Source: Thiotrichaceae bacterium UBA7357 (GTDB taxonomy: Bacteria; Pseudomonadota; Gammaproteobacteria; Eutrophobiales; Eutrophobiaceae). From it: a stretch of DNA of 64,000 nt. The position numbers were made by a program, and so were the translations under genes. The notes under the pieces were generated by a model, which had not been told where the DNA came from, ran no database searches, and saw only the letters and a program-made list of their open reading frames with translations. Location of the stretch: assembly GCA_002470825.1 (NCBI GenBank), contig DKOR01000018.1, positions 120,482 through 184,481 on the forward strand, written 5' to 3'. Position 1 is the first letter of the stretch, and each line of letters begins with the position of its first letter. Below, piece by piece: positions 1-29,139 of this stretch.

Positions 1-428
1 GGGATAAGTCCGGGCTTTAAAAAGATATCGGCGTCTAGTAAAAGCAGATAGGGCGTTTTGATTAGTTGACGGCCTTGTTCCAAAGCCCATAACTTACCAC
101 TCCAACCTTCAGGTAGTGGGGTGCCCATAACAACATGTAAATTATTCAAATTTACGGCGAGAGCTTTTTCGACAGTATCATCGGTAGATTGATCATCGAT
201 CAGTATTACATTTAGTCCTTCTCCTTGTTCTTTTAGAGCAGCGAGTGTTTTATCGATTGTTTCTGTCTCATCTCTTGCAGGAATAAGAACAGTGGTATTA
301 GATAAATCGAGGTCTTCTACTGATTGGCTATCGAGTGTTTCTCGGGTGCTCCAAGCACGACACGGTAGTAGTAATATTGCGAGCCAAATAAGCAATCCTG
401 GCATTACTGCCAAGAGTGTTATTTCCAT
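1..428 (-). CDS. Family 2 glycosyltransferase, 5' portion only (gene continues past window start); HpnB-like hopanoid-associated GT
   Basis: Reverse-strand translation from the ATG at 428..426 gives MEITLLAVMPGLLIWLAILLLP (TM) ...VLIPARDETETI...ILIDDQSTDDT...GTPLPEGWSGKLWALEQG, a GT2/DPM1-like fold with the GWxGKLWA motif recalled for HpnB. The start overlaps the hpnH stop (TAATG). Confidence 0.55.
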   Translation of the reverse strand, partial: MEITLLAVMPGLLIWLAILLLPCRAWSTRETLDSQSVEDLDLSNTTVLIPARDETETIDKTLAALKEQGEGLNVILIDDQSTDDTVEKALAVNLNNLHVVMGTPLPEGWSGKLWALEQGRQLIKTPYLLLLDADIFLKPGLI

Positions 429-1555
429 TACGCGACTTGTTTGTTACTACTGCAACTTTTGGCGGCTGTAGTTTTCGCAACTAGTTTTGGTGCGATTACC
501 TCATCTTTATAAAGTATAGGTAATTCAGGTGCCATTTCGCCATCAGTCCTAGGACCTCTCAGGAATACACCCAATGCTTTAAATGGATGGTTAACTGTGT
601 CATTGACAGCGGTAGCTTCGAAGCCGCAATGAACCATACAGTTATCACATTTTGGATTTTTTCCAGTACCGTAATTGTCCCATTCGGTTTCTTCCATTAA
701 GCCAGCAAAGGTTGATGCATATCCCTCGCCAACTAATAAATAGCAAGGTTTTTGCCAGCCAAAAACATTACGGGTTGGGTTGCCCCAAGGGGTACATTCA
801 TATGTCTGATTCCCTGCCAAGAAGTCTAAATATAAGGATGATTGATTAAAACGCCAATTTTTGCCAATGCCCAGTTTAAATAAGTCACGAAAAAGTTGTT
901 TACTCTCCGTCTTTTTTAGAAACACGTCTTGCTTAGGTGCTCTTTCATAGTGATATCCTGGGGATATAGTGACAGCCTCAACACCCAATCCCATCGCCAT
1001 GTCCATGAACTCGGCTACTTCTTCGGCGGGCTCATTTTGAAATAAAGTACAATTAATAGTGACGCGGAAACCCTTTCCAATAGCCAGTTTAATTACGCTT
1101 ATACATTTTTCGAAGACACCTTCTAGGCAAACCGAAGCATCATGTCGTTTTTTGTTACCGTCTAAATGGATAGAAAAAGTTAGATAGGGTGATGGTGTGT
1201 ATTTGTCAATATGCTTTTTTAGCAATAGGGCATTAGTGCAAAGATAAACAAATTTCTTGCGTCCAATGTAGCCATTTACTATCTGAGACATTTCTTTGTG
1301 AATCAATGGTTCACCACCAGCAATAGAGACAACAGGCGCTCCACATTCATCAATTGCATTCATGCACTCGTCATAACTTAGCCGTTTATCAAGAATCTCT
1401 TTTGGGTAATCAATCTTGCCACAACCGGCGCAAGCTAAATTACACCTGAATAAAGGCTCCAACATCAATACAAGAGGATATTTCTTTACACCACTGATTT
1501 TCTTACCGAGAATATATTTACCCATTCTGTATTGCTGAATAAAGGGGACACTCAT
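428..1555 (-). CDS. hpnH: Hopanoid biosynthesis-associated radical SAM protein HpnH (adenosylhopane synthase)
   Basis: 375 aa. CNLACAGC (CX3CX2C) lies near the N-terminus and the protein aligns end to end with recalled HpnH (LVLMLEPLFRCNLACAGCGKI..., YLCTNALLL, ECTPWG.P.RN.FGWQKPCYL, CDNCMVHCG). Confidence 0.85.
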   Translation of the reverse strand: MSVPFIQQYRMGKYILGKKISGVKKYPLVLMLEPLFRCNLACAGCGKIDYPKEILDKRLSYDECMNAIDECGAPVVSIAGGEPLIHKEMSQIVNGYIGRKKFVYLCTNALLLKKHIDKYTPSPYLTFSIHLDGNKKRHDASVCLEGVFEKCISVIKLAIGKGFRVTINCTLFQNEPAEEVAEFMDMAMGLGVEAVTISPGYHYERAPKQDVFLKKTESKQLFRDLFKLGIGKNWRFNQSSLYLDFLAGNQTYECTPWGNPTRNVFGWQKPCYLLVGEGYASTFAGLMEETEWDNYGTGKNPKCDNCMVHCGFEATAVNDTVNHPFKALGVFLRGPRTDGEMAPELPILYKDEVIAPKLVAKTTAAKSCSSNKQVA

Positions 1556-3703: not shown

Positions 3704-4786
3704 TTATTGAACAATCTTTTTCATTTCTTCAATAAATCTTTCTAAATCATTATTACTAATATCTCCCATACAAGAGATACGAAACAATGATTTGGCAAAC
3801 CCACCTTGTCCGGCATAGATGATAAAGCCAGCGTTCTTTAGTTTATCGTGTAGTTCTTCATAACTGATACCCTCAGGTAGCAGGAATGAATTTAGTACAC
3901 AGGAGGTTTCATTTCGTTCCAGTGAGGCTTTCATGTTTAATTCAAGCAAACCATTGCGAACAATGTCCATTCGTTGCCAGTATTGTTTCTGGCGTTTTCG
4001 CCAACCACCGGCATCGTTTAACTCATCTAATGCCTCGGCCAAGGCATAGAAGGTTTGTATTGATTGGGTGAAAGGTGTGCTATTGCTATCTTGTAGTTTC
4101 ATATAGGTCACAAGATCAAGATAGAGTGTGCGGGCAGGAGTTGCCGACATTTGTGTTATCGCTTCTCTATTACTGATAACGAATGAAGTGCCGGGGACAC
4201 CATGTAAACATTTATTTGCTGTTGCGGCGCAGGCAGCGATGTTCCATTCCTTGAATTTAATCTCTTCCGCACCAAAACTGCTAACGGCATCGAGCAAAAG
4301 TGGAATTCTCCCATGTTTATTAGAAAGTTCAGCAATGGCATCGATATCATTTAATCTTCCGGTGGTTGTTTCATGATGTACAACGGCAATATGGGATAGC
4401 TGTCTATTACATAGCAGCTCACTCTCTAACTTAGTCAGATCGATTTCCTCACCCCACTCATGATGAAGTATTACGTGTTCTATATTATGTGTTTTTGCTA
4501 TGTAACTTAAGCGTTCACCATAGACACCATTTTCTATAATTAAGACCTTCCCATGTGAAGGCACAAGACTAGTTATCATACCCTCCATTGCCGAGGTGCC
4601 AGAGCCAGTAAAGACTATGCTAGTCCATTGTTCTTCTGGCAGTTGATAAATATTTAGTAGATCGGTTTTGATCTTATTTTGTAATTTAATAAATTCTTGT
4701 TCACGATGACACAGATCGGGCTTTAATAGTGCCTGACGAACACGCTCACTTAAAACAACTGGACCAGGATTCAGTAATATAGTCAT
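3704..4786 (-). CDS. phnW: 2-aminoethylphosphonate:pyruvate aminotransferase (class V aminotransferase)
   Basis: 360 aa with the LLNPGPV N-terminus typical of the AGT/PhnW family. Last gene of the pepM-ppd operon. Confidence 0.75.
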   Translation of the reverse strand: MTILLNPGPVVLSERVRQALLKPDLCHREQEFIKLQNKIKTDLLNIYQLPEEQWTSIVFTGSGTSAMEGMITSLVPSHGKVLIIENGVYGERLSYIAKTHNIEHVILHHEWGEEIDLTKLESELLCNRQLSHIAVVHHETTTGRLNDIDAIAELSNKHGRIPLLLDAVSSFGAEEIKFKEWNIAACAATANKCLHGVPGTSFVISNREAITQMSATPARTLYLDLVTYMKLQDSNSTPFTQSIQTFYALAEALDELNDAGGWRKRQKQYWQRMDIVRNGLLELNMKASLERNETSCVLNSFLLPEGISYEELHDKLKNAGFIIYAGQGGFAKSLFRISCMGDISNNDLERFIEEMKKIVQ

Positions 4787-4788
4787 GA

Positions 4789-5943
4789 TTAAAAGCTGCT
4801 ATTAATATGTTTCATCAGTCTATTCAATACTTTATTTGGTGTGATGTCGGGTCTAGGTAGGTCTCCTATTGTGCCAGATGCTATTCTTAGATGGGCGAAT
4901 ACTGGCCCGTCTTGTGGTCCTATATTAAATAGCTTATCAATTATGTCGATTTCATTACTGGATAGACACACACTGTAACCACTTGCCTCTGCTACCTTCA
5001 AAAAATCGACATTACCACCAACGGTAGCTTGACCACCGGTAGAATCATGAACTTCATTATTCAATAGTATGTGGATTAGATTGTGACCTGCATAACTACC
5101 AATAGTAGCAAAATTACCCATACGCATCAGACCTGCGCCATCACCATCAATAATAACAACTTTTAAATCAGACCTAGCTAAAGCAACACCTAAACCTAAT
5201 GATGAAGCACAACCCATAGAACCCACCATATAAAAATGGTTGGAGCGATCATCGATGGCAAATAACTCACGACCGGTAAACCCTGTCGTCGCAATTAACA
5301 CTGTGTTTGCTTTAGGTGTCCGTTCGATAATTCTTTGCAAGACCTTATTACGATTAAGAGTTGATGCATCGGGATTATATGATGAATGAACAAGCGTCTT
5401 TCGTGATGAAATATCTTTCACTGGATTTTTATATAACGCCTGTGGCGCGACTGTACCTTTTTCCATTATAAAGGCGTAAGGTCTTTGTTCTTTTTTCATA
5501 TAATGATCTGCACGTTCTAGAGCTGGTCCTATATCTTCAACATTATTTGGAAATACTTCCCAAGGGACGCACATGGTGTCGAATAAATCTTTAGTTATTT
5601 GACCCATTAACTCATGTTGTGGCTCGTCTTTAATTCCAGGCTGACCACGATGAGTGCTTATAAGTAAATTTGGAATACGAAACACATAAGAAAGAGATGT
5701 TAACGGACTGATAGCGTTGCCTAGTCCTGAGTTTTGCATCATAACAACAGAACGCTGACCACCTATTGCTGCTCCTGCTGCGGTTGCTAATGCATCTCCT
5801 TCGTTAGCAGAGGAGACGTATTCCAATGTGTCATCGTTAATAACATAATTTATAAATGGTGTCAGGAATGAGCATGGCACACCCGTATAACGACTGAAAC
5901 CGAATTCGCGTGCCGCTTCAATAAATTCTTTTGCTTCGATCAA
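4789..5943 (-). CDS. ppd: Phosphonopyruvate decarboxylase (TPP-dependent)
   Basis: 384 aa with an N-terminal TPP-enzyme domain and a GDG...NN TPP-binding motif (VIIDGDGAGLMRMGNFATIG). Apparent TTG start 11 nt after the pepM stop. Confidence 0.8.
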   Translation of the reverse strand: MIEAKEFIEAAREFGFSRYTGVPCSFLTPFINYVINDDTLEYVSSANEGDALATAAGAAIGGQRSVVMMQNSGLGNAISPLTSLSYVFRIPNLLISTHRGQPGIKDEPQHELMGQITKDLFDTMCVPWEVFPNNVEDIGPALERADHYMKKEQRPYAFIMEKGTVAPQALYKNPVKDISSRKTLVHSSYNPDASTLNRNKVLQRIIERTPKANTVLIATTGFTGRELFAIDDRSNHFYMVGSMGCASSLGLGVALARSDLKVVIIDGDGAGLMRMGNFATIGSYAGHNLIHILLNNEVHDSTGGQATVGGNVDFLKVAEASGYSVCLSSNEIDIIDKLFNIGPQDGPVFAHLRIASGTIGDLPRPDITPNKVLNRLMKHINSSF

Positions 5944-5954
5944 TTTCGCTCTCT

Positions 5955-7592
5955 TTATTTTATAAAGTCGCTAGCGCGATCTATATCATCCAATGAATTT
6001 ACATCAAGCCAATGACCGTCTATATAATGAACATGGACTGGTTTCTCTTCTTGTATCAAATAATTTAACAAGTCAGGTATCGTAAGTTCATTGAAGTTTT
6101 TTGCTGACTTTAATTTTGTCAGCGCCGACTCTATCCATTCTCGGCCTTGTTTTCTGACACGCATCATCCCGATCCAGTAACCAGAAGGCTTTTTCTTAGA
6201 GGTATCAATTGAAGAAGATAGCTGTATTAATGTGACATCTTGCATAAACGGAGAACGATCATCATCTTTACTGCAATAGGCATAATCAGGATTGCCGGTT
6301 ATATTTGGATTATCCAAAGCAGAATCAACGATAATGACGACTTCCCCATCTGTTTCAATCAAGTCTCTCAGAATATATTCCCGAAACAATAGATCGCTAT
6401 AAAGAATCAACATATCGTCATTAAAATTTTCGTTTGCACAAATCAGTGTTTGTAGTTCATCACCTCTTTCGTAATCTTCATTGATACATTTCTCAATGCC
6501 GAGGAGATCTATCGCTTCCGCTTTATAACCTGCTATTACAGTAGATTTATTTATACCTACTTTTTTCAAGCCATCCATTAATCGACCTAGTAAGGTTTTA
6601 CCGCCAATACTGATCATCGCCTTTGGTTTATCATGTGTCAGCTCTCGTAATTCACTGCCCCTGCTTGCAGCTAGGATGACGGCATGGACATCTGATTTTT
6701 GTACTAAATATCTATCTTGTGCCTGACTTAATTCATCAGCACCTTGTAACTGAAAGATATGATCAACACTGGCAATTTTATCTTCAATATCGGCTAGAGA
6801 TTCTGAATCAAAAATAGCTTTACTAGTTTTTTCCATTTCATGAACAGAAGAGCGAATTAAATGATTGGCCCAAATAACCAAATTAATTCCTGCCTTACGA
6901 AAGGCATCTGTTGGTGTACTATAATATTTAGTTGGGACAATAACCAAGGGTGAGCGCTCAGCCCATTCTTTTGCAAAGGTGAGGATCTCATCTGGTCTGG
7001 AGAGTTTACTATGAATCAATACACCATCAGCACCGGCTTGACGATAGGCCTCTGCTCGCTTCAGTGCTTCATTTAATCCCCAGCCGGCAATCAGCGCTTC
7101 AACTCTCGCAACGATACTAAAATCATCATCGGATTGACTATCTTTACCTGCTTTAATTTTGCCACAAAATTCATCAATATCGGCCAAGGGTTGTTTGTTA
7201 CCATCGATAAAGCTATTTGTTTTTGGAAATTGTTTATCCTCTATACAAACGCCAGCAATATCACGTTGTTCTAGTTTTACGACAAGTCGACGCATATTGT
7301 TGAAATTACCATAACCGGTATCACCATCTAACAAGATTGGAATGCTTGTTGCGTCAGACATAAACTCTAGCATGTCGACTACCTGAGTCCAGCTTGCTTC
7401 GTTGCTGTCACGCACACCAAATTGTGCTGATATGGCAAGACCACTACCCCAGATACCTTTAAAACCGGCACTTTCTACAATACTTGCAGAAATACCATTA
7501 TGTGCTTCCAGAATGAATTCAAGTTCATTTGATTCAAGCAAAGAGCTTAGTTGTTTACACTTGCTAATTTTTTCACGACTATTTTTAGACAT
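5955..7592 (-). CDS. pepM: Phosphoenolpyruvate phosphomutase fused to a C-terminal LicC/CTP-transferase-like nucleotidyltransferase domain
   Basis: 545 aa. The N-terminal ~290 aa are an ICL/PEP mutase fold ([10 protein letters not shown]..., EDKQFPK..NSF); the C-terminal ~250 aa carry the NTase motif ([14 protein letters not shown]...[12 protein letters not shown]). Confidence 0.85.
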
Positions 7593-7611
7593 TTTTATAT
7601 TTAGCTAATGA

Positions 7612-8361
7612 TTAATAATTGATAGGTGATAATTTAGGGATTATCTCATTTTGGGCACGTTCAATATCTTCAGGAAAATCTATTTCGATCCAAGGAATGC
7701 CAGTAACATCTTCATAGCCAAATTGCTCGGGATATATTAATAATAGATCGCGAATTGCTTCTTCATACGGTGTATTGTTTTTGTTTTTTGCAAGATAGTC
7801 ATTTATTCGCCCAAGCAATGATGTGCCTATTAGCTTAGTAAACTTGAAAAAGCCGACTGATTCACCTTGTATAGCGTAATCAAGCTTTTCATCGATATTT
7901 TTTCTAAACTCATTTATTTGAGCATTTTTATCAACACAAATTTTTACAGGTTCATTACCAGGGATAAAATCACGGTCGAGCAAAAGGCAGTTTTTTATAT
8001 TCGTATTGATCAGACGAGTTATCATTTCATGACCATACAGAACATCAGCATCCATCAAAATAAATTCAGATTCATTGTATAGTGTTTCTTGTGCACAACT
8101 AAGGCTGATAATACTTCCTTCGGCATAACGATCATTATAAATATAGTTTATTGGTATTGTTTCATTGCTGAGATGAGTCTTTATCATTTCAGACTGATAG
8201 CCAGTGACTATTGTTATTTCTTCGATATGATTTGCCGAAAGAATTTCAATATGACGCTTTAATAGACTTTTCCCTTCAAACTTCAGTAATGACTTAGGTT
8301 GATTGGCAGCATGCATACCGAGTCTGTTACCAATGCCTGCGGCAAGAATAATAGCCTTCAT
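7612..8361 (-). CDS. LicC-like nucleotidyltransferase (CTP:phospho-base cytidylyltransferase family)
   Basis: MKAIILAAGIGNRLG N-terminus from the ATG at 8361..8359. The ORF is open further upstream to 8505, but that extension has no NTase similarity. Confidence 0.7.
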   Translation of the reverse strand: MKAIILAAGIGNRLGMHAANQPKSLLKFEGKSLLKRHIEILSANHIEEITIVTGYQSEMIKTHLSNETIPINYIYNDRYAEGSIISLSCAQETLYNESEFILMDADVLYGHEMITRLINTNIKNCLLLDRDFIPGNEPVKICVDKNAQINEFRKNIDEKLDYAIQGESVGFFKFTKLIGTSLLGRINDYLAKNKNNTPYEEAIRDLLLIYPEQFGYEDVTGIPWIEIDFPEDIERAQNEIIPKLSPINY

Positions 8362-8906
8362 AATCTTGTTATTTATACCTTTGTGTAAATGGTTCTTGAA
8401 CCAAAGGACTTCAAGTCCCTCATTTGCAACTATCAGGAATAGTTGGATTGTATCATTGTTACAAAAAATGTCCTTATGTACATTTGCAGATGAAAATATA
8501 GTCATGAATAATATATGTTAATAAGCCATTATGAATGATTATAATCAATATAATTAGCCCTATAAATAAATATTACTGAGCAACTTGACGATGAGAGTAT
8601 GTGATTCATTTGTCAAAGAGCAATGAATTATCGGTCAGGCAAGGTACTATTTTAGGGTAAGTCTTGATTAATTGCTGGCTTCATGGGTTATATTAAAATT
8701 GTAAGTAAGTATGCAAATACACAAAATTGTTTTTCATCTCTATGGCATGATTTCTGTAAAATCAAATCAACTAATATATCTTCGGCTAATACTTTCTTTT
8801 TTTATTTAATTCAAATTGAATATCTATTATTTTTTACTCGACTATCTATGCAGGTCATTAATTGAAAAATTTTTTGTAATTATATTCATGTACGTTTCTC
8901 GAACAA

Positions 8907-11351: not shown

Positions 11352-12644
11352 ATGACTGACAACATGCCAGAAAAAATTGGAAAATATGAAGTTCGAAATG
11401 AGATCAATCGCGGGAGTATGGGAGTCGTTTATCTTGGACACGATCCTTACGTAAATCGACATGTTGCTTTGAAGCTCGCATTTCTAGACTCACTTAATGA
11501 ACCAGAGTTTGGTGAGCGATATCGTAAAATGTTTTTTAATGAAGCTCATACTGCTGGTTTACTAACGCACCCCAATATTATTAATATTTATGATGCTGGT
11601 GTAGATGGTGACAATTGTTATATTGTTATGGAATATATTGAAGGTGGTAATACACTTAAGCCATATTGTGATTCCAATATGTTATTACCTATCAATAAAG
11701 TCGTTGAAATAATATTTAAATGTGCAAGTGCACTTGACTACGCACATCGACAAGGGGTTGTACATAGAGATATTAAACCTTCAAATATACTTTTTACGCC
11801 CGACCAAAATGTAAAGATTGCGGATTTTAGTATTGCTCATATATATAACGCAGATTCAACGACGACACAGGTGGGTGGAATGATGGGGTCGCCAAGATAT
11901 ATGTCTCCGGAACAACTTAAAGAAGAATACATAACTAACCAGAGTGATATTTTTTCATTAGGTGTGGTCATGTATGAGTTGTTGACAGGACGACAACCAT
12001 TTGCTGCAAATAGCTTTTCAGGATTGGTAAATAGTGTATTAAATGATGAGCCGCCGCCAATGAATAACTATCGGAATAATCTGCCTGAAGCTTTAAAAGA
12101 GATCGTAAATAAAGCTTTGAACAAAGATCTTTCTAATCGCTACAAGATGGGATTAGATTTTGCTGCAGATCTTACTAAAGCATTTGATATGTTGGGGAAG
12201 CCTAGAGAAGATATTTTTGTTAAAGAAAGATTTAATGCTGTCAAAACATTAGAATTTTTTGCTGATTTTGACGACACAGAAATTTGGGAAATTTTACATG
12301 CTAGTACATGGAAAGCTTATCATACTAATGATGATATTATTGTTGAAGGAGATATAGATGATTGTTTTTATGTCATCGTTAATGGCAGTGTTGAGGTGAC
12401 GAAAAATAGATCAGTCATTCGAAGGTTGGAAAAAGGCGATTGTTTTGGTGAAATGGGTTATCTATCTAAAACTAAGCGAACTGCCACTATCAAATCACTT
12501 GATTGTACGTCGATAATGAAAATTAATTCAACAGTGATTAATCAGGCATCAATAAATTGCCAGGTACGATTTTACAAGGTTTTTTTGAGAACCTTAATAA
12601 ATCGACTATCTGAAACTACAGAAAAGATATCTCAGGAGGTCTGA
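11352..12644 (+). CDS. Eukaryotic-like Ser/Thr protein kinase fused to a C-terminal cyclic-nucleotide-binding (CAP-family) domain
   Basis: 430 aa. Hanks kinase motifs are present (GRGSMGVVY, VALK, HRDIKPSNILF, ADFSIA, SPEQ); the C-terminal ~120 aa show a cNMP-binding pattern (IIVEGDIDDCFYVIVNGSVEV..GDCFGEMGYL..RTATIKS). Confidence 0.8.
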   Translation: MTDNMPEKIGKYEVRNEINRGSMGVVYLGHDPYVNRHVALKLAFLDSLNEPEFGERYRKMFFNEAHTAGLLTHPNIINIYDAGVDGDNCYIVMEYIEGGNTLKPYCDSNMLLPINKVVEIIFKCASALDYAHRQGVVHRDIKPSNILFTPDQNVKIADFSIAHIYNADSTTTQVGGMMGSPRYMSPEQLKEEYITNQSDIFSLGVVMYELLTGRQPFAANSFSGLVNSVLNDEPPPMNNYRNNLPEALKEIVNKALNKDLSNRYKMGLDFAADLTKAFDMLGKPREDIFVKERFNAVKTLEFFADFDDTEIWEILHASTWKAYHTNDDIIVEGDIDDCFYVIVNGSVEVTKNRSVIRRLEKGDCFGEMGYLSKTKRTATIKSLDCTSIMKINSTVINQASINCQVRFYKVFLRTLINRLSETTEKISQEV

Positions 12645-13296: not shown

Positions 13297-14259
13297 ATGT
13301 ACGATACATCATCTTTACTCAATCAAAGAAAATTTCCAATGATTAAGCGAAAGAGCCTAACTACGCTACAAATCAATATTGGCTTGAAGTGTAATCAGCA
13401 GTGTTTTCATTGCCATGTTAATTCGAGCCCCAAAAGAAAAGAAAAAATGTCTAATGCCACTATTAAGGCAATTAAGCTATTTCTAAAAAATAATAATATT
13501 GAATCACTTGATATCACTGGTGGTGCGCCAGAACTTCACTCAGAATTCAGATCTCTTATAAAATATGCGCGTGAAAATGATGTGCATGTTATAGATCGGT
13601 GTAATCTGACTATTTTAGAAGAGCCAGGGATGGAATACCTTGCGCAATTTTTAGCAGATTATGAAGTAGAAATTATAGCTTCTCTACCTTGCTATGAACT
13701 AGAAAATGTTGATAAACAACGAGGTGTAGGTGTGTTTGAGAAAAGTATCAGGGGTTTGAAAAAATTGAATAAAGTAGGTTATGGACATTCAAATTTGGAG
13801 TTACCTTTGAATTTAGTATTTAATCCTCAGGGGGCAGCATTGCCACCACCACAAGATTATCTGGAACGAACTTATAAAAAAGAATTATTGGAGAGGCATG
13901 GAATTAAATTCAATAAACTTTTTACATTATGTAATATGCCAATAAACAGATTTGGAAGTACCTTGGTATCCAAAAATCAATTAGATGACTATATGAGAAT
14001 GCTTACGGGTTCGCATAGGGAAGAGAATCTAAGAGATGTGATGTGTCGTAGTTTAATCAGTGTTGACTGGCAAGGTTATGTATATGATTGTGATTTTAAT
14101 CAAATGTTGAATATAAATTTAAATGATGCCGAAGAAAAAATATCGATTTCTGATTTGGTTGGTAATGATATTGAAGGTGATATAATTGCAGTGCGGGATC
14201 ATTGTTATGGTTGTACGGCAGGGCAAGGTAGTAGCTGTAGCGGTGCATTAACTGCTTGA
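13297..14259 (+). CDS. Radical SAM / C-terminal Cys-rich domain protein, ArsS-like (TIGR04167-type rSAM/selenodomain protein, Cys version)
   Basis: 320 aa with an N-terminal CNQQCFHC (CX3CX2C), the ITGGAPELH glycine-rich motif and a C-terminal Cys cluster CYGCTAGQGSSCSG. Immediately followed by its two usual partner transferases. Confidence 0.75.
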   Translation: MYDTSSLLNQRKFPMIKRKSLTTLQINIGLKCNQQCFHCHVNSSPKRKEKMSNATIKAIKLFLKNNNIESLDITGGAPELHSEFRSLIKYARENDVHVIDRCNLTILEEPGMEYLAQFLADYEVEIIASLPCYELENVDKQRGVGVFEKSIRGLKKLNKVGYGHSNLELPLNLVFNPQGAALPPPQDYLERTYKKELLERHGIKFNKLFTLCNMPINRFGSTLVSKNQLDDYMRMLTGSHREENLRDVMCRSLISVDWQGYVYDCDFNQMLNINLNDAEEKISISDLVGNDIEGDIIAVRDHCYGCTAGQGSSCSGALTA

Positions 14260-14265
14260 GATTAT

Positions 14266-14946
14266 ATGCAAAAAAAAATATCTATTATAATCCCAACACT
14301 AAATGAAGCCGACCAAGTTGAACGACAGCTGGCTAAGCTTCAGACGTTACGGAAAAATGGTCATGAGGTGATTTTAGTAGATGGTGGCAGTATTGATGGT
14401 ACAGTTTCATTAGTAATATCATTATGTGATCAAGTTTATGAGTCTCAACGATCACGCTCAATTCAAATGAACTATGGAGCAAGAAAAGCGACGGGAAAAT
14501 GTTACGTATTTTTACATGCTGATACAATTCTTCCAGATGACATTATTCAGTTTTTGTTGAAGATTAATAATATTGAAGAAAAATGGGGCAGGTTCGATAT
14601 AAGTCTGTCAGGAAGACACTGGCTATTCCGTGTTATTGAGTCATTTATTAATTGTCGATCAAGTTTTACAGGTATTGTTACAGGTGATCAGGTTATTTTT
14701 ATTGGAGAGGAATTGTTTTCCAGAGTGGGAGGATATCCAGAAATAGCTTTAATGGAAGATATTGCTATATCTAGTTTGTTGATTAAATTTTCAAAGCCAA
14801 TTCGAACTAGAAAAAAGGTAATCAGTTCTAGTCGACGTTGGGAAAAAAATGGAATATTTAAAACAATTATAACAATGTGGATATTAAGATTATTATATTT
14901 CTTTGATTATGATATTAATAAAATAGCAAGATACTATGGAAAATGA
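14266..14946 (+). CDS. Family 2 glycosyltransferase (rSAM/selenodomain-associated transferase 2, TIGR04283-like)
   Basis: 226 aa with the ISIIIPTLNE...VILVDGGSIDGT GT2 N-terminus. Starts 6 nt after the rSAM stop and overlaps the next gene by 11 nt. Confidence 0.75.
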   Translation: MQKKISIIIPTLNEADQVERQLAKLQTLRKNGHEVILVDGGSIDGTVSLVISLCDQVYESQRSRSIQMNYGARKATGKCYVFLHADTILPDDIIQFLLKINNIEEKWGRFDISLSGRHWLFRVIESFINCRSSFTGIVTGDQVIFIGEELFSRVGGYPEIALMEDIAISSLLIKFSKPIRTRKKVISSSRRWEKNGIFKTIITMWILRLLYFFDYDINKIARYYGK

Positions 14947-15580
14947 ATTTTCTAGAGGAGCTCTCTTAATCTTTACAAAAGCACCTGTGCGCGGACATGT
15001 TAAAACACGATTAATCCCAAGCATTGGTCTAGAGCATGCTACTTCGATATATCAAGAAATTTTAACAAAGACGCTAAGCACGGCAAGAAAATCTAATTTT
15101 TCTTCTATACAGGTATGGGTTGATGGTGGGGTTGAGCATGCTTATTTTAAGCGTTTAAAAAGTAGGCATAAGGTTAAATTTTACAAACAGAAAGGTAAGG
15201 ATTTAGGAGTACGAATGATGAACGCCTTTAAAATTGCTTTACGTCAATATTCTCATGCTGTTTTAATTGGTGGAGACTGTCCTTCATTAGAATATTTAGA
15301 TTTAATAATGGCAAGTGACTATCTTAAGAACAATACAGATGTAGTCTTAGGCCCTGCAATTGATGGCGGTTACTATTTGATAGGTTTAAATAAAAACAAT
15401 GCTCAAATATTCACAAATGTAAAATGGGGTAAAAGCGGAGTGTTTGCTCACACTTGTGAAAATATAAGTGCTCTAGGCTTGAAGCTTGACTTGTTGCCAG
15501 AGCGTTGGGATGTTGACCGAACTGTTGATTTACTACCTTACTTCAAGATGAAACGAAAAAACGCCACTCTTTACTACTAA
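14936..15580 (+). CDS. DUF2064 / MobA-like nucleotidyltransferase-fold protein (rSAM/selenodomain-associated transferase 1, TIGR04282-like)
   Basis: 214 aa with LIFTKAPVRGHVKTRL...DLGVRMMNAF...LIGGDCP...GPAIDGGYYLIG. The G-x-D-x-P and DGGY motifs are typical of the DUF2064 family. Confidence 0.65.
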   Translation: MENEFSRGALLIFTKAPVRGHVKTRLIPSIGLEHATSIYQEILTKTLSTARKSNFSSIQVWVDGGVEHAYFKRLKSRHKVKFYKQKGKDLGVRMMNAFKIALRQYSHAVLIGGDCPSLEYLDLIMASDYLKNNTDVVLGPAIDGGYYLIGLNKNNAQIFTNVKWGKSGVFAHTCENISALGLKLDLLPERWDVDRTVDLLPYFKMKRKNATLYY

Positions 15581-26100: not shown

Positions 26101-26299
26101 TGATTAGTTGTTTATAAATAAGTTAAAGTGACATATTTGTTCTTCTAAATTGGAGTACATCATATTTTAAGAATGTAATATGAACTTACTGCTAATGATG
26201 ATGATATGTAAGTCAAAAAAACAAGATTATTTTCAAGTAAACGTATAAAGCTAAATTTTTTACGAAATATCTCTCATTTTATAGGTCGGCACGGCTAGT

Positions 26300-26860
26300 T
26301 TCTTGGCCTTGGACTATTACCATTTCTTTGTTTAAGAGTTTACCGTGTCGCTATGGACTTTGACAATAGCAGTACTATTCTTAAAAGAAGTTGTAACTAT
26401 AAAAAAGATAATAGCCGTTTTATTTGGAATGGCAGATATCTTAGTTATATTAAAACCAGGTATTGAAATAATTGAACTGACATCACTTGTTGTTTTGATT
26501 GCAGTTATTGGATATGCAGTTTCACATGTTACTACCAAATCATTATCAAACACGGAGTATTCATTAACAGTTTTGTTTTATATGTGTCTTGTACAGTCAA
26601 CAGTTAGTTTTTTATTGACTATTAATAATTGAATATTTCCTGATTTGAAACAATGGCTATGGTTTGGGATAGTTGCTATAGTAGCTTTAATAGCGCATCA
26701 CTCTATTACTAATTCGATGAAACTATAGGAAGCGGTAATTGTAGTAACTCTAGATTTCTTGCGACTGTCATTGATCGCTATTATCGGCGTCATTTGTCAT
26801 GATGAGGCATTTGAGATTGTATTAATTTTAGAGGGGGTGTTTAATACTGTTTGACAATTT
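26300..26860 (+). pseudogene. Remnant of an EamA/DMT-family transporter gene (5'-truncated, frameshifted)
   Basis: Three short ORF pieces in different frames carry EamA-like TM segments: ILVILKPG...LIAVIGYAVSHVTTKSL, then WLWFGIVAIVALIAHHSITNSMKL, then AVIVVTLDFLRLSLIAIIGVICHDE. There is no intact start or first domain. Confidence 0.4.
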
Positions 26861-26960: not shown

Positions 26961-27254
26961 TTATTTTCCTTGATTGAAATGATAAAAGGAATCGTTTAGA
27001 TAAGTTGTAACTTGATCTGTCTCCTCTTCAAACCACATTAACTCAGACATTAACTCACATTGAACGACACGTTCATGTAGTAACGGATAGCTTTGAATTT
27101 TGCTTTCTTTTCGAGTGTAGAGAGAATGTTCATGACAACGTACACAATTGTCGTTGTGTAGTATCTTGCCATTTTCACTATCAAAAGCATATGCTGTTGA
27201 GTACAACAATGTGAAAACCATGAAGTTTAATAAAGTTCTGTAAAGTAAATTCAT
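26961..27254 (-). CDS. Small secreted protein with a single CxxCH motif (possible heme-binding or metal-binding periplasmic protein)
   Basis: 97 aa with signal peptide MNLLYRTLLNFMVFTLLYSTAYA|FD and the motif CVRCHEH. Its ATG overlaps the stop of the upstream M48 protease gene (ATGA), so the two are translationally coupled. Confidence 0.45.
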   Translation of the reverse strand: MNLLYRTLLNFMVFTLLYSTAYAFDSENGKILHNDNCVRCHEHSLYTRKESKIQSYPLLHERVVQCELMSELMWFEEETDQVTTYLNDSFYHFNQGK

Positions 27255-28495
27255 GTGAACTTATTCATCAAGTGCGCGATTCTAATTGGTGCTGGTGGGT
27301 GTGAATCATGGAATGATGAATATAATGGATCAGGTGTTAAAGTGTTTGCATTCTCACGATATAAGCTGACTAATGCTGTAATTAAGTTTTCTGTTTGTGC
27401 TTGGCTTGCTGCGAAATCATCAGCCTCAAACTCGTGTTGGCGAGAAATAAACGAGAACATTGGTTGTAGAAAAAATGTAAATGCAGGCGAGGCTAATAAA
27501 AATAATATTAACGCCATATAATTAGATGCTTCATCTACTCCAAGACCATTATAGAACCAGGACTCGTTAATCAACCAACCAAGTAACGCCAAGCCAATCA
27601 GAAAAACAGCTCCCAATATCGATATGCGCTTACGAATATGATTACATTTGAAATGCCCAAGTTCGTGTGCCAGAACAGCTTCAATCTCATCGTAACTAAG
27701 TTCGTCGACTAAGGTATCAAAAAAGACAATGCGTTTATTTGCACCAAGTCCTGTAAAGTAGGCGTTGCCATGTGTCGAACGAGTGGAACCATCCATAACG
27801 AAGATACCCTGACTTTTGAATCCATTACGAGTAAGTAGATTTTCAATACGTGTTCTTAATTCTTCATTGTCCAAGGGCCTAAATTTATTAAAAATGGGTG
27901 CTATAAAAGCAGGGTAAGCCCACATCATGATGAGACTAAAACTCAACCATGTCGCCCAAACATAAAGCCACCAATGACTACCACTATTTTCCATAATCCA
28001 AAGCACAAGCAGTAAGATTGGTGTACCGATCAATAGTCCTACTACAGCATTTTTAAGTAGATCAGCGATGAATATTTTTGATGTCGTTTTATTGAAACCA
28101 AAAATTTGTTCTAGTTTAAATGTGCGATAGATAGACATTGGTAAATCGAGTATGGACATGATGACGAAGACACTGAGAATGAAGCCTGTACCGGTCCAAA
28201 TATCCGATAAGCCAAATGAACGTAACCAGTCATCTAGTAACTGAAGACCACCTGCTAATGTCCATAGTATTAAGAATACTGAACCAATGATGAGCTCAGC
28301 GAAACCTGTTCTTACTTTGGCTTGGGTATAGTCTGCAGCCCTATGATGTGCTTCAATTGAAATTTTACCATTGAAGGCATCAGGGACTTCTTCACGATGT
28401 GAACTAATATGGTTGATGTGTCTTTGCACTAAAAACCATTGAATAATAATGCTGACACCTAGGCTCAGTACAAAAATGGTAGTAAAGTGATTCAC
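27251..28495 (-). CDS. M48-family zinc metalloprotease, Ste24/CAAX-protease-like integral membrane protein
   Basis: 414 aa with several N-terminal TM helices, the HELGHFKCNH HExxH motif and a downstream EFEAD motif. GTG start. Confidence 0.85.
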   Translation of the reverse strand: MNHFTTIFVLSLGVSIIIQWFLVQRHINHISSHREEVPDAFNGKISIEAHHRAADYTQAKVRTGFAELIIGSVFLILWTLAGGLQLLDDWLRSFGLSDIWTGTGFILSVFVIMSILDLPMSIYRTFKLEQIFGFNKTTSKIFIADLLKNAVVGLLIGTPILLLVLWIMENSGSHWWLYVWATWLSFSLIMMWAYPAFIAPIFNKFRPLDNEELRTRIENLLTRNGFKSQGIFVMDGSTRSTHGNAYFTGLGANKRIVFFDTLVDELSYDEIEAVLAHELGHFKCNHIRKRISILGAVFLIGLALLGWLINESWFYNGLGVDEASNYMALILFLLASPAFTFFLQPMFSFISRQHEFEADDFAASQAQTENLITALVSLYRENANTLTPDPLYSSFHDSHPPAPIRIAHLMNKFT

Positions 28496-28596: not shown

Positions 28597-29139
28597 ATGT
28601 CATATTCTAAAAATAATCTTATATGGATCGATCTGGAAATGACAGGTCTTGATACTGATATTGATCAAATCATAGAGATCGCAACTATTGTTACTGATTC
28701 ACAGCTGAACATCCTTGAGGAAGGCCCAATAATAGCAATCTTTCAAACTGATGATGTACTGAATCAAATGGATGAATGGAATACACGACAACATAATCAA
28801 TCCGGTTTGGTAGAAAGAATCAAGACTAGTTCCTATAATCTCGCTGAAGCTGAGAGTTTTACACTGACATTTTTAAATAAACTCGTTCCAAAAGGAAAAT
28901 CACCAATGTGTGGCAATAGTATATGTCAGGATCGCAGGTTTATGCACCGATTAATGCCAAATTTAGAAGCCTATTTCCATTATCGAAATCTTGATGTAAG
29001 TACTATCAAGGAGATCAAAAATCGCTGGGCGCCTGAACATAAAGATTATAATAAGCAAAGTAACCATCTTGCTATGGACGACATACGCGATTCAATCAAT
29101 GAATTACTATTTTATAGAGAGCATGTCTTTAAAATATAA
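28597..29139 (+). CDS. orn: Oligoribonuclease
   Basis: 180 aa with the DEDDh motifs ([11 protein letters not shown]; HYRNLDVST). Confidence 0.95.

Follow-up and report, generated by a model that had tools for sequence, protein, structure and literature searches.

A predicted Ste24-type protease and a small class I c-type cytochrome encoded as an overlapping gene pair in a Thiotrichaceae bacterium: a probable case of inherited gene order

Results

The gene pair and its place in the genome

The window analyzed here, a stretch of 64,000 nucleotides (nt) of contig DKOR01000018.1 of Thiotrichaceae bacterium UBA7357, contains on its minus strand two overlapping genes, predicted to encode a Ste24-type M48 protease and a small cytochrome c. 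Comparison of this locus with those of near and distant relatives makes it reasonably probable that the two genes are a real, co-transcribed pair which occupies an ancestral slot of a stable housekeeping block, and that their order has been inherited with no obligatory partnership between cytochrome and protease. The proposed arrangement is as follows. The upstream gene of the co-transcribed pair would specify a seven-helix Ste24-type protease with a cytoplasmic catalytic domain, and the downstream gene a soluble class I c-type cytochrome, exported to the periplasm by the Sec pathway and carrying one haem with His41 as the proximal ligand. The slot held by the cytochrome gene would belong to a very stable gammaproteobacterial housekeeping block. 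The features concerned are:

27251..28495, minus strand: Ste24-type M48 zinc metalloprotease gene as assigned by sequence comparison (414 amino acids (aa), GTG start, seven predicted membrane helices)
26961..27254, minus strand: predicted small cytochrome c precursor gene (97 aa, ATG start; mature protein of about 74 aa, monohaem class I c-type, predicted to be periplasmic)
27251..27254, minus strand: ATGA overlap of 4 nt between the TGA stop codon of the M48 gene and the ATG start codon of the small gene (tcat on the plus strand, as read from the sequence)
28597..29139, plus strand: orn (oligoribonuclease), divergent from the pair; this RNase_T gene is also divergent from M48 in related loci and is the fixed anchor of the block

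An initial annotation of this DNA had reported an M48 gene and a 97-aa open reading frame (ORF) sharing a 4-nt ATGA overlap, and both ORFs were recovered exactly. It had also proposed a search for homologues of the small ORF beside M48 genes in other genomes. This search was performed, and the pair was found to recur widely. A scan of species genomes yielded 18 loci, all of them from uncultured marine Thiotrichaceae-like Gammaproteobacteria. M48 lies directly upstream of the cytochrome gene in all 17 of the clade loci for which upstream flanking sequence is available; identity at the clade loci is 62–91% for the protease, except for a Thiomargarita fragment, and 47–73% for the cytochrome.

The distant set comprised 80 metagenome loci with 33–48% cytochrome identity, found in a scan with a 16-sequence alignment, together with eight long contigs, and the upstream tally is based on the 76 informative loci among the 80 metagenome loci and the first four long-contig loci. 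Directly upstream of the cytochrome gene is M48 in 54 of the 76, a divergent orn without M48 in seven, and another gene in 15; these fractions are biased, since the loci were sampled via the cytochrome, by its motif and its similarity to the query. Downstream of the cytochrome gene, the gene for pterin-4a-carbinolamine dehydratase (pcd) or rsgA was found in 62 of 77 loci. Four of the eight long contigs carry the M48-cytochrome pair, one, a Chromatiaceae metagenome-assembled genome (MAG), has a divergent orn followed by cytochrome-rsgA, and three place the cytochrome gene in unrelated contexts. At loci that lack M48, the stop codon of the cytochrome gene abuts or overlaps the start codon of rsgA (L031, 2025-3333; L033; L044; and L110, 3501-4795, the Chromatiaceae MAG).

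Taken as a whole, the compared sequences display a recurring block, apparently ancestral, in the order orn (divergent), M48, cytochrome, (pcd), rsgA. Within it, the cytochrome gene is tied at least as constantly to rsgA/pcd as to the protease gene, and the products of rsgA and pcd are cytoplasmic, without a plausible link to a periplasmic haem protein. In Escherichia coli K-12, rsgA and orn are adjacent and divergent, and neither M48 nor a cytochrome gene lies between them. The region of the window from 23529 to 47346 keeps the E. coli 94-minute gene order, with dnaX-ybaB-recR on one side of the pair and, on the other, orn, nnr, tsaE, amiB, mutL, miaA, hflX, hflK, hflC, a hisS-like gene, purA, rnr, rlmB and rpsF. 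The housekeeping synteny around the pair is the same as that of the E. coli rsgA-orn pair and the nnr-tsaE-amiB-mutL-miaA-hflXKC-purA-rnr-rlmB block, but the window differs in having M48 and the cytochrome gene beside orn, and rsgA is gone from the locus in the clade to which the window belongs. Both pcd and rsgA are absent from the whole window.

Neither a Ste24-cytochrome pairing nor an orn-M48-cytochrome-rsgA operon came to light in literature searches; the initial annotation likewise knew of no periplasmic CxxCH partner of a Ste24-type protease.

The 4-nt ATGA overlap with M48 is present in 13 of the 17 clade loci and in 6 of the 54 distant loci with the pair, and also at loci L109 and L112; a spacer of 4–31 nt separates the two genes in 40 of the 54. 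The overlap is a lineage-specific compaction of the operon, typical of this AT-rich lineage, and no conserved property of the pair. In the lineage of the window it would be expected to couple translation of the two genes, and to this extent the co-translation proposed in the initial annotation stands. The stoichiometric expression proposed along with it is unsupported: the overlap is no evidence of a stoichiometric complex, because it is the rule only in the clade of the window, most distant loci having spacers, and where M48 is missing the cytochrome gene abuts rsgA equally tightly.

The protease

27653..27667, minus strand: HELGH zinc-binding motif of the protease (residues 277-281), in a long K/R-rich loop predicted to be cytoplasmic

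The product of the upstream gene matches the Pfam families Peptidase_M48_N (the five-helix domain; E=1.7e-58) and Peptidase_M48 (E=1.4e-35), in both cases far over the gathering scores. Its residues 21-407 align with yeast Ste24p (4il3_A, E=1.1e-61), and human ZMPSTE24 is matched at an E value of about 1e-47. A hydropathy scan revealed seven membrane segments, and the number of K+R residues in the successive loops is 4, 1, 5, 0, 13, 0 and 4. According to the positive-inside rule, the HELGH loop and the C-terminal domain are predicted to be cytoplasmic, and three loops, of 15 to 26 residues each, are predicted to be periplasmic. The predicted topology agrees with that of the solved Ste24 enzymes, in which the protease domain is placed at the cytosolic interface (PMC10456885).

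Judged by these sequence features, the protein is a genuine Ste24-type (M48A) enzyme, and its earlier description as a Ste24-like M48 protease is borne out by both Pfam domains, the HELGH motif, the seven helices and the near full-length alignment with 4il3_A. It shares the domains, the motif and the helices with yeast Ste24p and human ZMPSTE24 (the M48A CaaX proteases), but unlike these it is bacterial, and a cytochrome c neighbor is no feature of the eukaryotic enzymes. We know of no prenylated CaaX substrates in bacteria, and to our knowledge neither substrates nor partners have been established for the Ste24-type proteases found there. A role of the small protein as a CaaX-type substrate was considered and rejected, as its C-terminus (...FNQGK) has no CaaX box and the protein has a folded (predicted haem) domain.

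A protease of identical sequence is present in TARA and JGI pelagic marine metagenomes. The Allochromatium vinosum gene Alvin_2110, annotated as "Peptidase M48 Ste24p", adjoins soxYZ and is induced during growth on pyrite (PMC11267869).

Inherited gene order or protease partnership

The M48-linked cases are all found at one position, beside orn, so they amount to roughly one ancestral arrangement that was inherited vertically, and not to a repeated association. The surrounding region has the classic E. coli order, which argues that synteny is kept here regardless of function. An obligate partner gene should always accompany the protease gene and be relocated together with it; the cytochrome gene does not show this behavior, as judged by the presence or absence of M48 at the locus.

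In the alternative that survives best, the cytochrome would serve the Ste24-type protease as a dedicated partner, for instance as a sensor of redox state or thiols in the periplasm that docks on the short periplasmic loops and tunes proteolysis. It could otherwise be a client of the protease, a small protein exported after translation, with the protease handling its export or its signal peptide; eukaryotic Ste24 is known to clear translocons that have become clogged during the post-translational export of small proteins (PMC10456885). A partnership would account for the position of M48 immediately before the cytochrome gene at all clade loci with upstream sequence and in the majority of distant loci counted above, for the retention of the pair in the clade of the window after the departure of pcd and rsgA, and for the recurrence of the 4-nt overlap in several lineages. 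On the other side, the linked cases represent about one event at one ancestral locus, and the cytochrome gene is found between orn and rsgA with no adjacent M48 in seven metagenome loci and the Chromatiaceae MAG, and stands alone elsewhere in unrelated contexts. The linkage to pcd/rsgA is at least as constant, although the products of these genes are functionally unrelated to the cytochrome. Ste24-type proteases are also far more widespread than the cytochrome family. A direct role as substrate, inhibitor or chaperone is further opposed by the predicted topology, as the catalytic site would be cytoplasmic and the mature cytochrome could reach only the three short periplasmic loops. On balance, the partnership is unproven and less likely than inherited residence in the operon; we regard it as doubtful.

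The absence of an obligatory partnership is nevertheless a deduction, and several points weigh against the proposed arrangement as a whole. The M48-cytochrome adjacency still holds where sequence identity has fallen to about 55% for M48 and 35% for the cytochrome. In the clade of the window the two genes have been kept together though pcd and rsgA are no longer downstream, which is what a functional link would predict. The bias in sampling the distant loci affects the fractions on which the argument draws, and the search for M48 homologues returned only relatives with at least 77% identity, too narrow a set to give the share of Ste24-type genes that lack the cytochrome. The lack of a Pfam match for the small protein (see below) counts on the same side, as does the fact that its haem, its location and its Cys66 ligation are predictions.

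The small protein: export signal and relationship to class I cytochromes c

The conservation figures for the small-protein family given here and below refer to 369 distinct family sequences (n=369).

27186..27254, minus strand: predicted Sec signal peptide, residues 1-23, MNLLYRTLLNFMVFTLLYSTAYA (rule-based check; cleavage predicted after A-Y-A, before F24)
27132..27146, minus strand: CVRCH, putative haem c attachment motif, Cys37/Cys40/His41 (mature residues 14-18), 100% conserved

The signal peptide claimed for the small protein in the initial annotation is supported by rule-based features (an n-region charge of +1, a 14-residue hydrophobic core with a mean Kyte-Doolittle value of 1.37, and Ala at positions -3 and -1), and also by the family as a whole, 79% of whose members have Ala at position -1 of the predicted cleavage site. 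The CVRCH motif aligns with the CxxCH of cytochrome c6, of bc1 cytochrome c subunits and of CcoP, and the reading of CVRCHEH as a haem c signature remains the best one. Haem would accordingly be expected on Cys37 and Cys40, and the mature protein would be periplasmic.

A Pfam scan of the small protein of the window gave no match even at E<=1, the thresholds of PF00034 and PF13442 being unmet, and an NCBIfam scan gave below-threshold matches only, to cytochrome c6 and FPM13. Precomputed matches to PF13442 or PF00034 exist for a minority of the family members. Members found in MAGs of Thiogranum, Chromatiaceae and Xanthomonadaceae are named "cytochrome c" by NCBI, and the name given to family members by JGI is "mono/diheme cytochrome c family protein". 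Among the matches of the deep family profile are cytochrome c6 (7y5e_GN), over the full length (E=5.5e-6), the N-terminal haem domain of quinohaemoprotein amine dehydrogenase (E=5.5e-5) and, around the CxxCH motif, many bc1 and cbb3 cytochrome c subunits. An AlphaFold model of the mature domain, built from a 111-sequence alignment, has four helices, a predicted local distance difference test score (pLDDT) of 91.5 and a predicted template modeling score (pTM) of 0.82, and it matches class I c-type cytochromes almost exclusively; it shows the all-alpha fold of class I, in which the N- and C-terminal helices are packed together. A preceding AlphaFold2 (AF2) model from six close sequences (pLDDT 47) was useless and was discarded.

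The initial annotation had recognized no homology family for this protein; the profile, the model and the NCBI names all indicate a cytochrome c. On the strength of the profile and the model, it is a divergent class I monohaem cytochrome c that belongs to a large, uncharacterized subfamily outside the Pfam models. The subfamily consensus is G-K-x-L-H-x-x-C-x-x-C-H...Y-T-R...R-C-E...W-F-D-E-E...Y-L-N-x-x-F-Y-x-F, and literature searches found no characterized member of this subfamily. One family member of 215 aa (P0007) consists of two tandem copies, of which the first reads CMKGCH (CxxxCH) in place of CxxCH.

Among the closest known systems are the class I monohaem cytochromes, such as cytochrome c6/c553 and SorB of the Starkeya novella sulfite dehydrogenase. 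In contrast to these, the family has no conserved distal Met (the "MP" loop) and has instead a Cys, 99% conserved, one helical turn earlier. The best solved-structure match over the domain core (E=5.5e-5; rank 2 in a Foldseek search) is the N-terminal haem domain of the alpha subunit of quinohaemoprotein amine dehydrogenase (1jmx_A, 1jju_A), which shares C-x-x-C-H...Y-S-R...V-K-Y-L with the small protein. That domain differs in being part of a 60-kDa dihaem subunit of an enzyme complex and in having Met at the Cys66 position, and no amine dehydrogenase genes were found near the cytochrome gene.

The third cysteine and the sixth haem position

27057..27059, minus strand: Cys66, the third cysteine, candidate sixth haem ligand or reactive thiol (Cys in 99% and Trp in 1% of the family)

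In the alignment with cytochrome c6, the distal Met ligand lies four residues beyond Cys66, where the third helix has just ended, and in that with the amine dehydrogenase haem domain, Met44 occupies the Cys66 position. The window protein has Met69 near the aligned distal-Met position, where only 18% of the family have Met. In four family members (among P0007, P0094, P0146, P0041 and P0154) Cys66 is replaced by Trp, and two of the four have an additional CxxxxC motif at the C-terminus.

These alignments suggest that Cys66 either serves as the sixth haem ligand or provides a reactive thiol beside the iron. Ligation by Cys66 itself is possible, with a likelihood that we place a little short of even. 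Cysteinate ligation of haem is known in TsdA and SoxA, where it is associated with low potentials and with a catalytic role in which nearby arginines take part (PMC6879331); Arg48 is likewise kept in the small-cytochrome family (95%). The small protein differs from the Cys-ligated haem 1 of TsdA and from SoxA in having one haem and 74 residues, and in being no dihaem enzyme or heterodimer. A specific sequence relationship to either was not seen, as neither TsdA nor SoxA is among the 60 best deep-profile matches. The haem of the small protein would be either His/Cys-ligated or would have an open or exchangeable sixth position near a thiol, with Met69 as a possible alternative ligand in the clade of the window. 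Such ligation would be better suited to a redox protein that has a low potential or responds to ligands than to a standard electron shuttle of high potential.

A more specific form of the partnership discussed above can be drawn from these features: the subfamily might be a minimal, cysteine-ligated periplasmic haem sensor (His/Cys, with Met69 switchable in the clade of the window) that reports redox or reduced-sulfur status to the protease. We consider this improbable. If true, the haem sensor would couple the redox state of the envelope to quality control of membrane proteins or secretion, and the conserved operon would be a functional module and more than a relic of inherited gene order.

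The CxxCH motif, Cys66 and the histidines might instead bind Zn, Cu or another metal, making the small protein a metal chaperone or chaperone-like factor for the zinc protease; the CxxCH had indeed been mentioned in the initial annotation as a plausible Zn/Cu ligand set. The three conserved cysteines and several histidines would suit such a function, and there is a weak NCBIfam match to the metalloprotein family FPM13 (E=0.063, far below the cut-off). The fold and the profile similarity are, however, specific to class I haem c proteins, with the CxxCH aligned to theirs; His33 is kept in just 67% of the family, and the histidines at positions 43, 60 and 92 are unconserved. Moreover, the zinc site of the protease is predicted to be on the cytoplasmic side, and the small protein has an export signal. 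Metal binding of this kind is thus very unlikely, and was rejected on the haem c fold and profile match and the unconserved histidines.

The small ORF is a genuine gene

The ratio of nonsynonymous to synonymous substitution rates (dN/dS) of the small ORF against clade relatives is 0.13-0.39, and that of the protease gene 0.05-0.12. A word-indexed search with the small protein returned only five close relatives. An exhaustive profile search identified 1,242 clusters (50% identity) at E<=1e-3, 326 of them at E<=1e-10, nearly all 85-110 aa long. Besides the invariant Cys37, Cys40 and His41 of the CxxCH motif, strongly conserved residues are Cys66 and Leu59 (99%), Leu86 and Tyr91 (98%), Arg48 and Phe93 (95%) and Asn87 (92%). 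The small ORF is under purifying selection and is a real gene. The initial annotation had named a spurious ORF as an outcome that would overturn its proposal, and a chance reading frame at the 3' end of the protease gene might be suspected from the shortness of the ORF, the lack of a Pfam match and the AT-rich genome; this is refuted by the 369 homologues with invariant motifs, the dN/dS below 1, the high-confidence fold and the independent calling of the gene in many assemblies, and can be dismissed with near certainty.

Other features of the window

Next to the pair, at 26162-26860 on the plus strand, lies a decayed gene of an EamA-family transporter with several in-frame stops, about 66% identical over residues 53-260 to the 288-aa gene that relatives have in intact form. 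In other metagenome contigs of the same lineage this place is likewise occupied by no more than a 90-95 aa ORF, so the decay is real and no assembly error. A PilZ-domain gene, located between the cytochrome and EamA genes in relatives (L001 and others), is absent from the window.

A phosphonate biosynthesis-like cluster is present at 3704-8505 on the minus strand:

3704-4786, minus strand: class V aminotransferase
4789-5943, minus strand: TPP-dependent decarboxylase
5955-7592, minus strand: PEP phosphomutase
7612-8505, minus strand: MobA-like nucleotidyltransferase

The window also contains genes for a radical SAM protein with DUF3463 (428-1555, minus strand) and for a eukaryote-type Ser/Thr protein kinase domain fused to a cyclic-nucleotide-binding domain (11352-12644, plus strand), as well as a region encoding a DUF3641 protein, a family 2 glycosyltransferase and a DUF2064 protein (13297-15580, plus strand).

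Discussion

Both proteins of the pair are of kinds already known, the protease being a member of the Ste24/M48A family and the cytochrome a member of the class I superfamily. A conserved neighbor of a bacterial Ste24-type protease is a lead worth recording, but a weak one, because the cytochrome gene is linked to the locus no less than to the protease. Of greater use is the cytochrome family itself, with about 1,240 clusters at 50% identity, which is covered by no Pfam model and, as far as the literature searches show, is unstudied. Its most interesting part is the third cysteine, Cys66, which is conserved like the haem attachment site. If Cys66 is no ligand, the protein would be an ordinary small electron carrier encoded in a conserved operon; if it does ligate the iron, no smaller Cys-ligated c-type cytochrome would be known.
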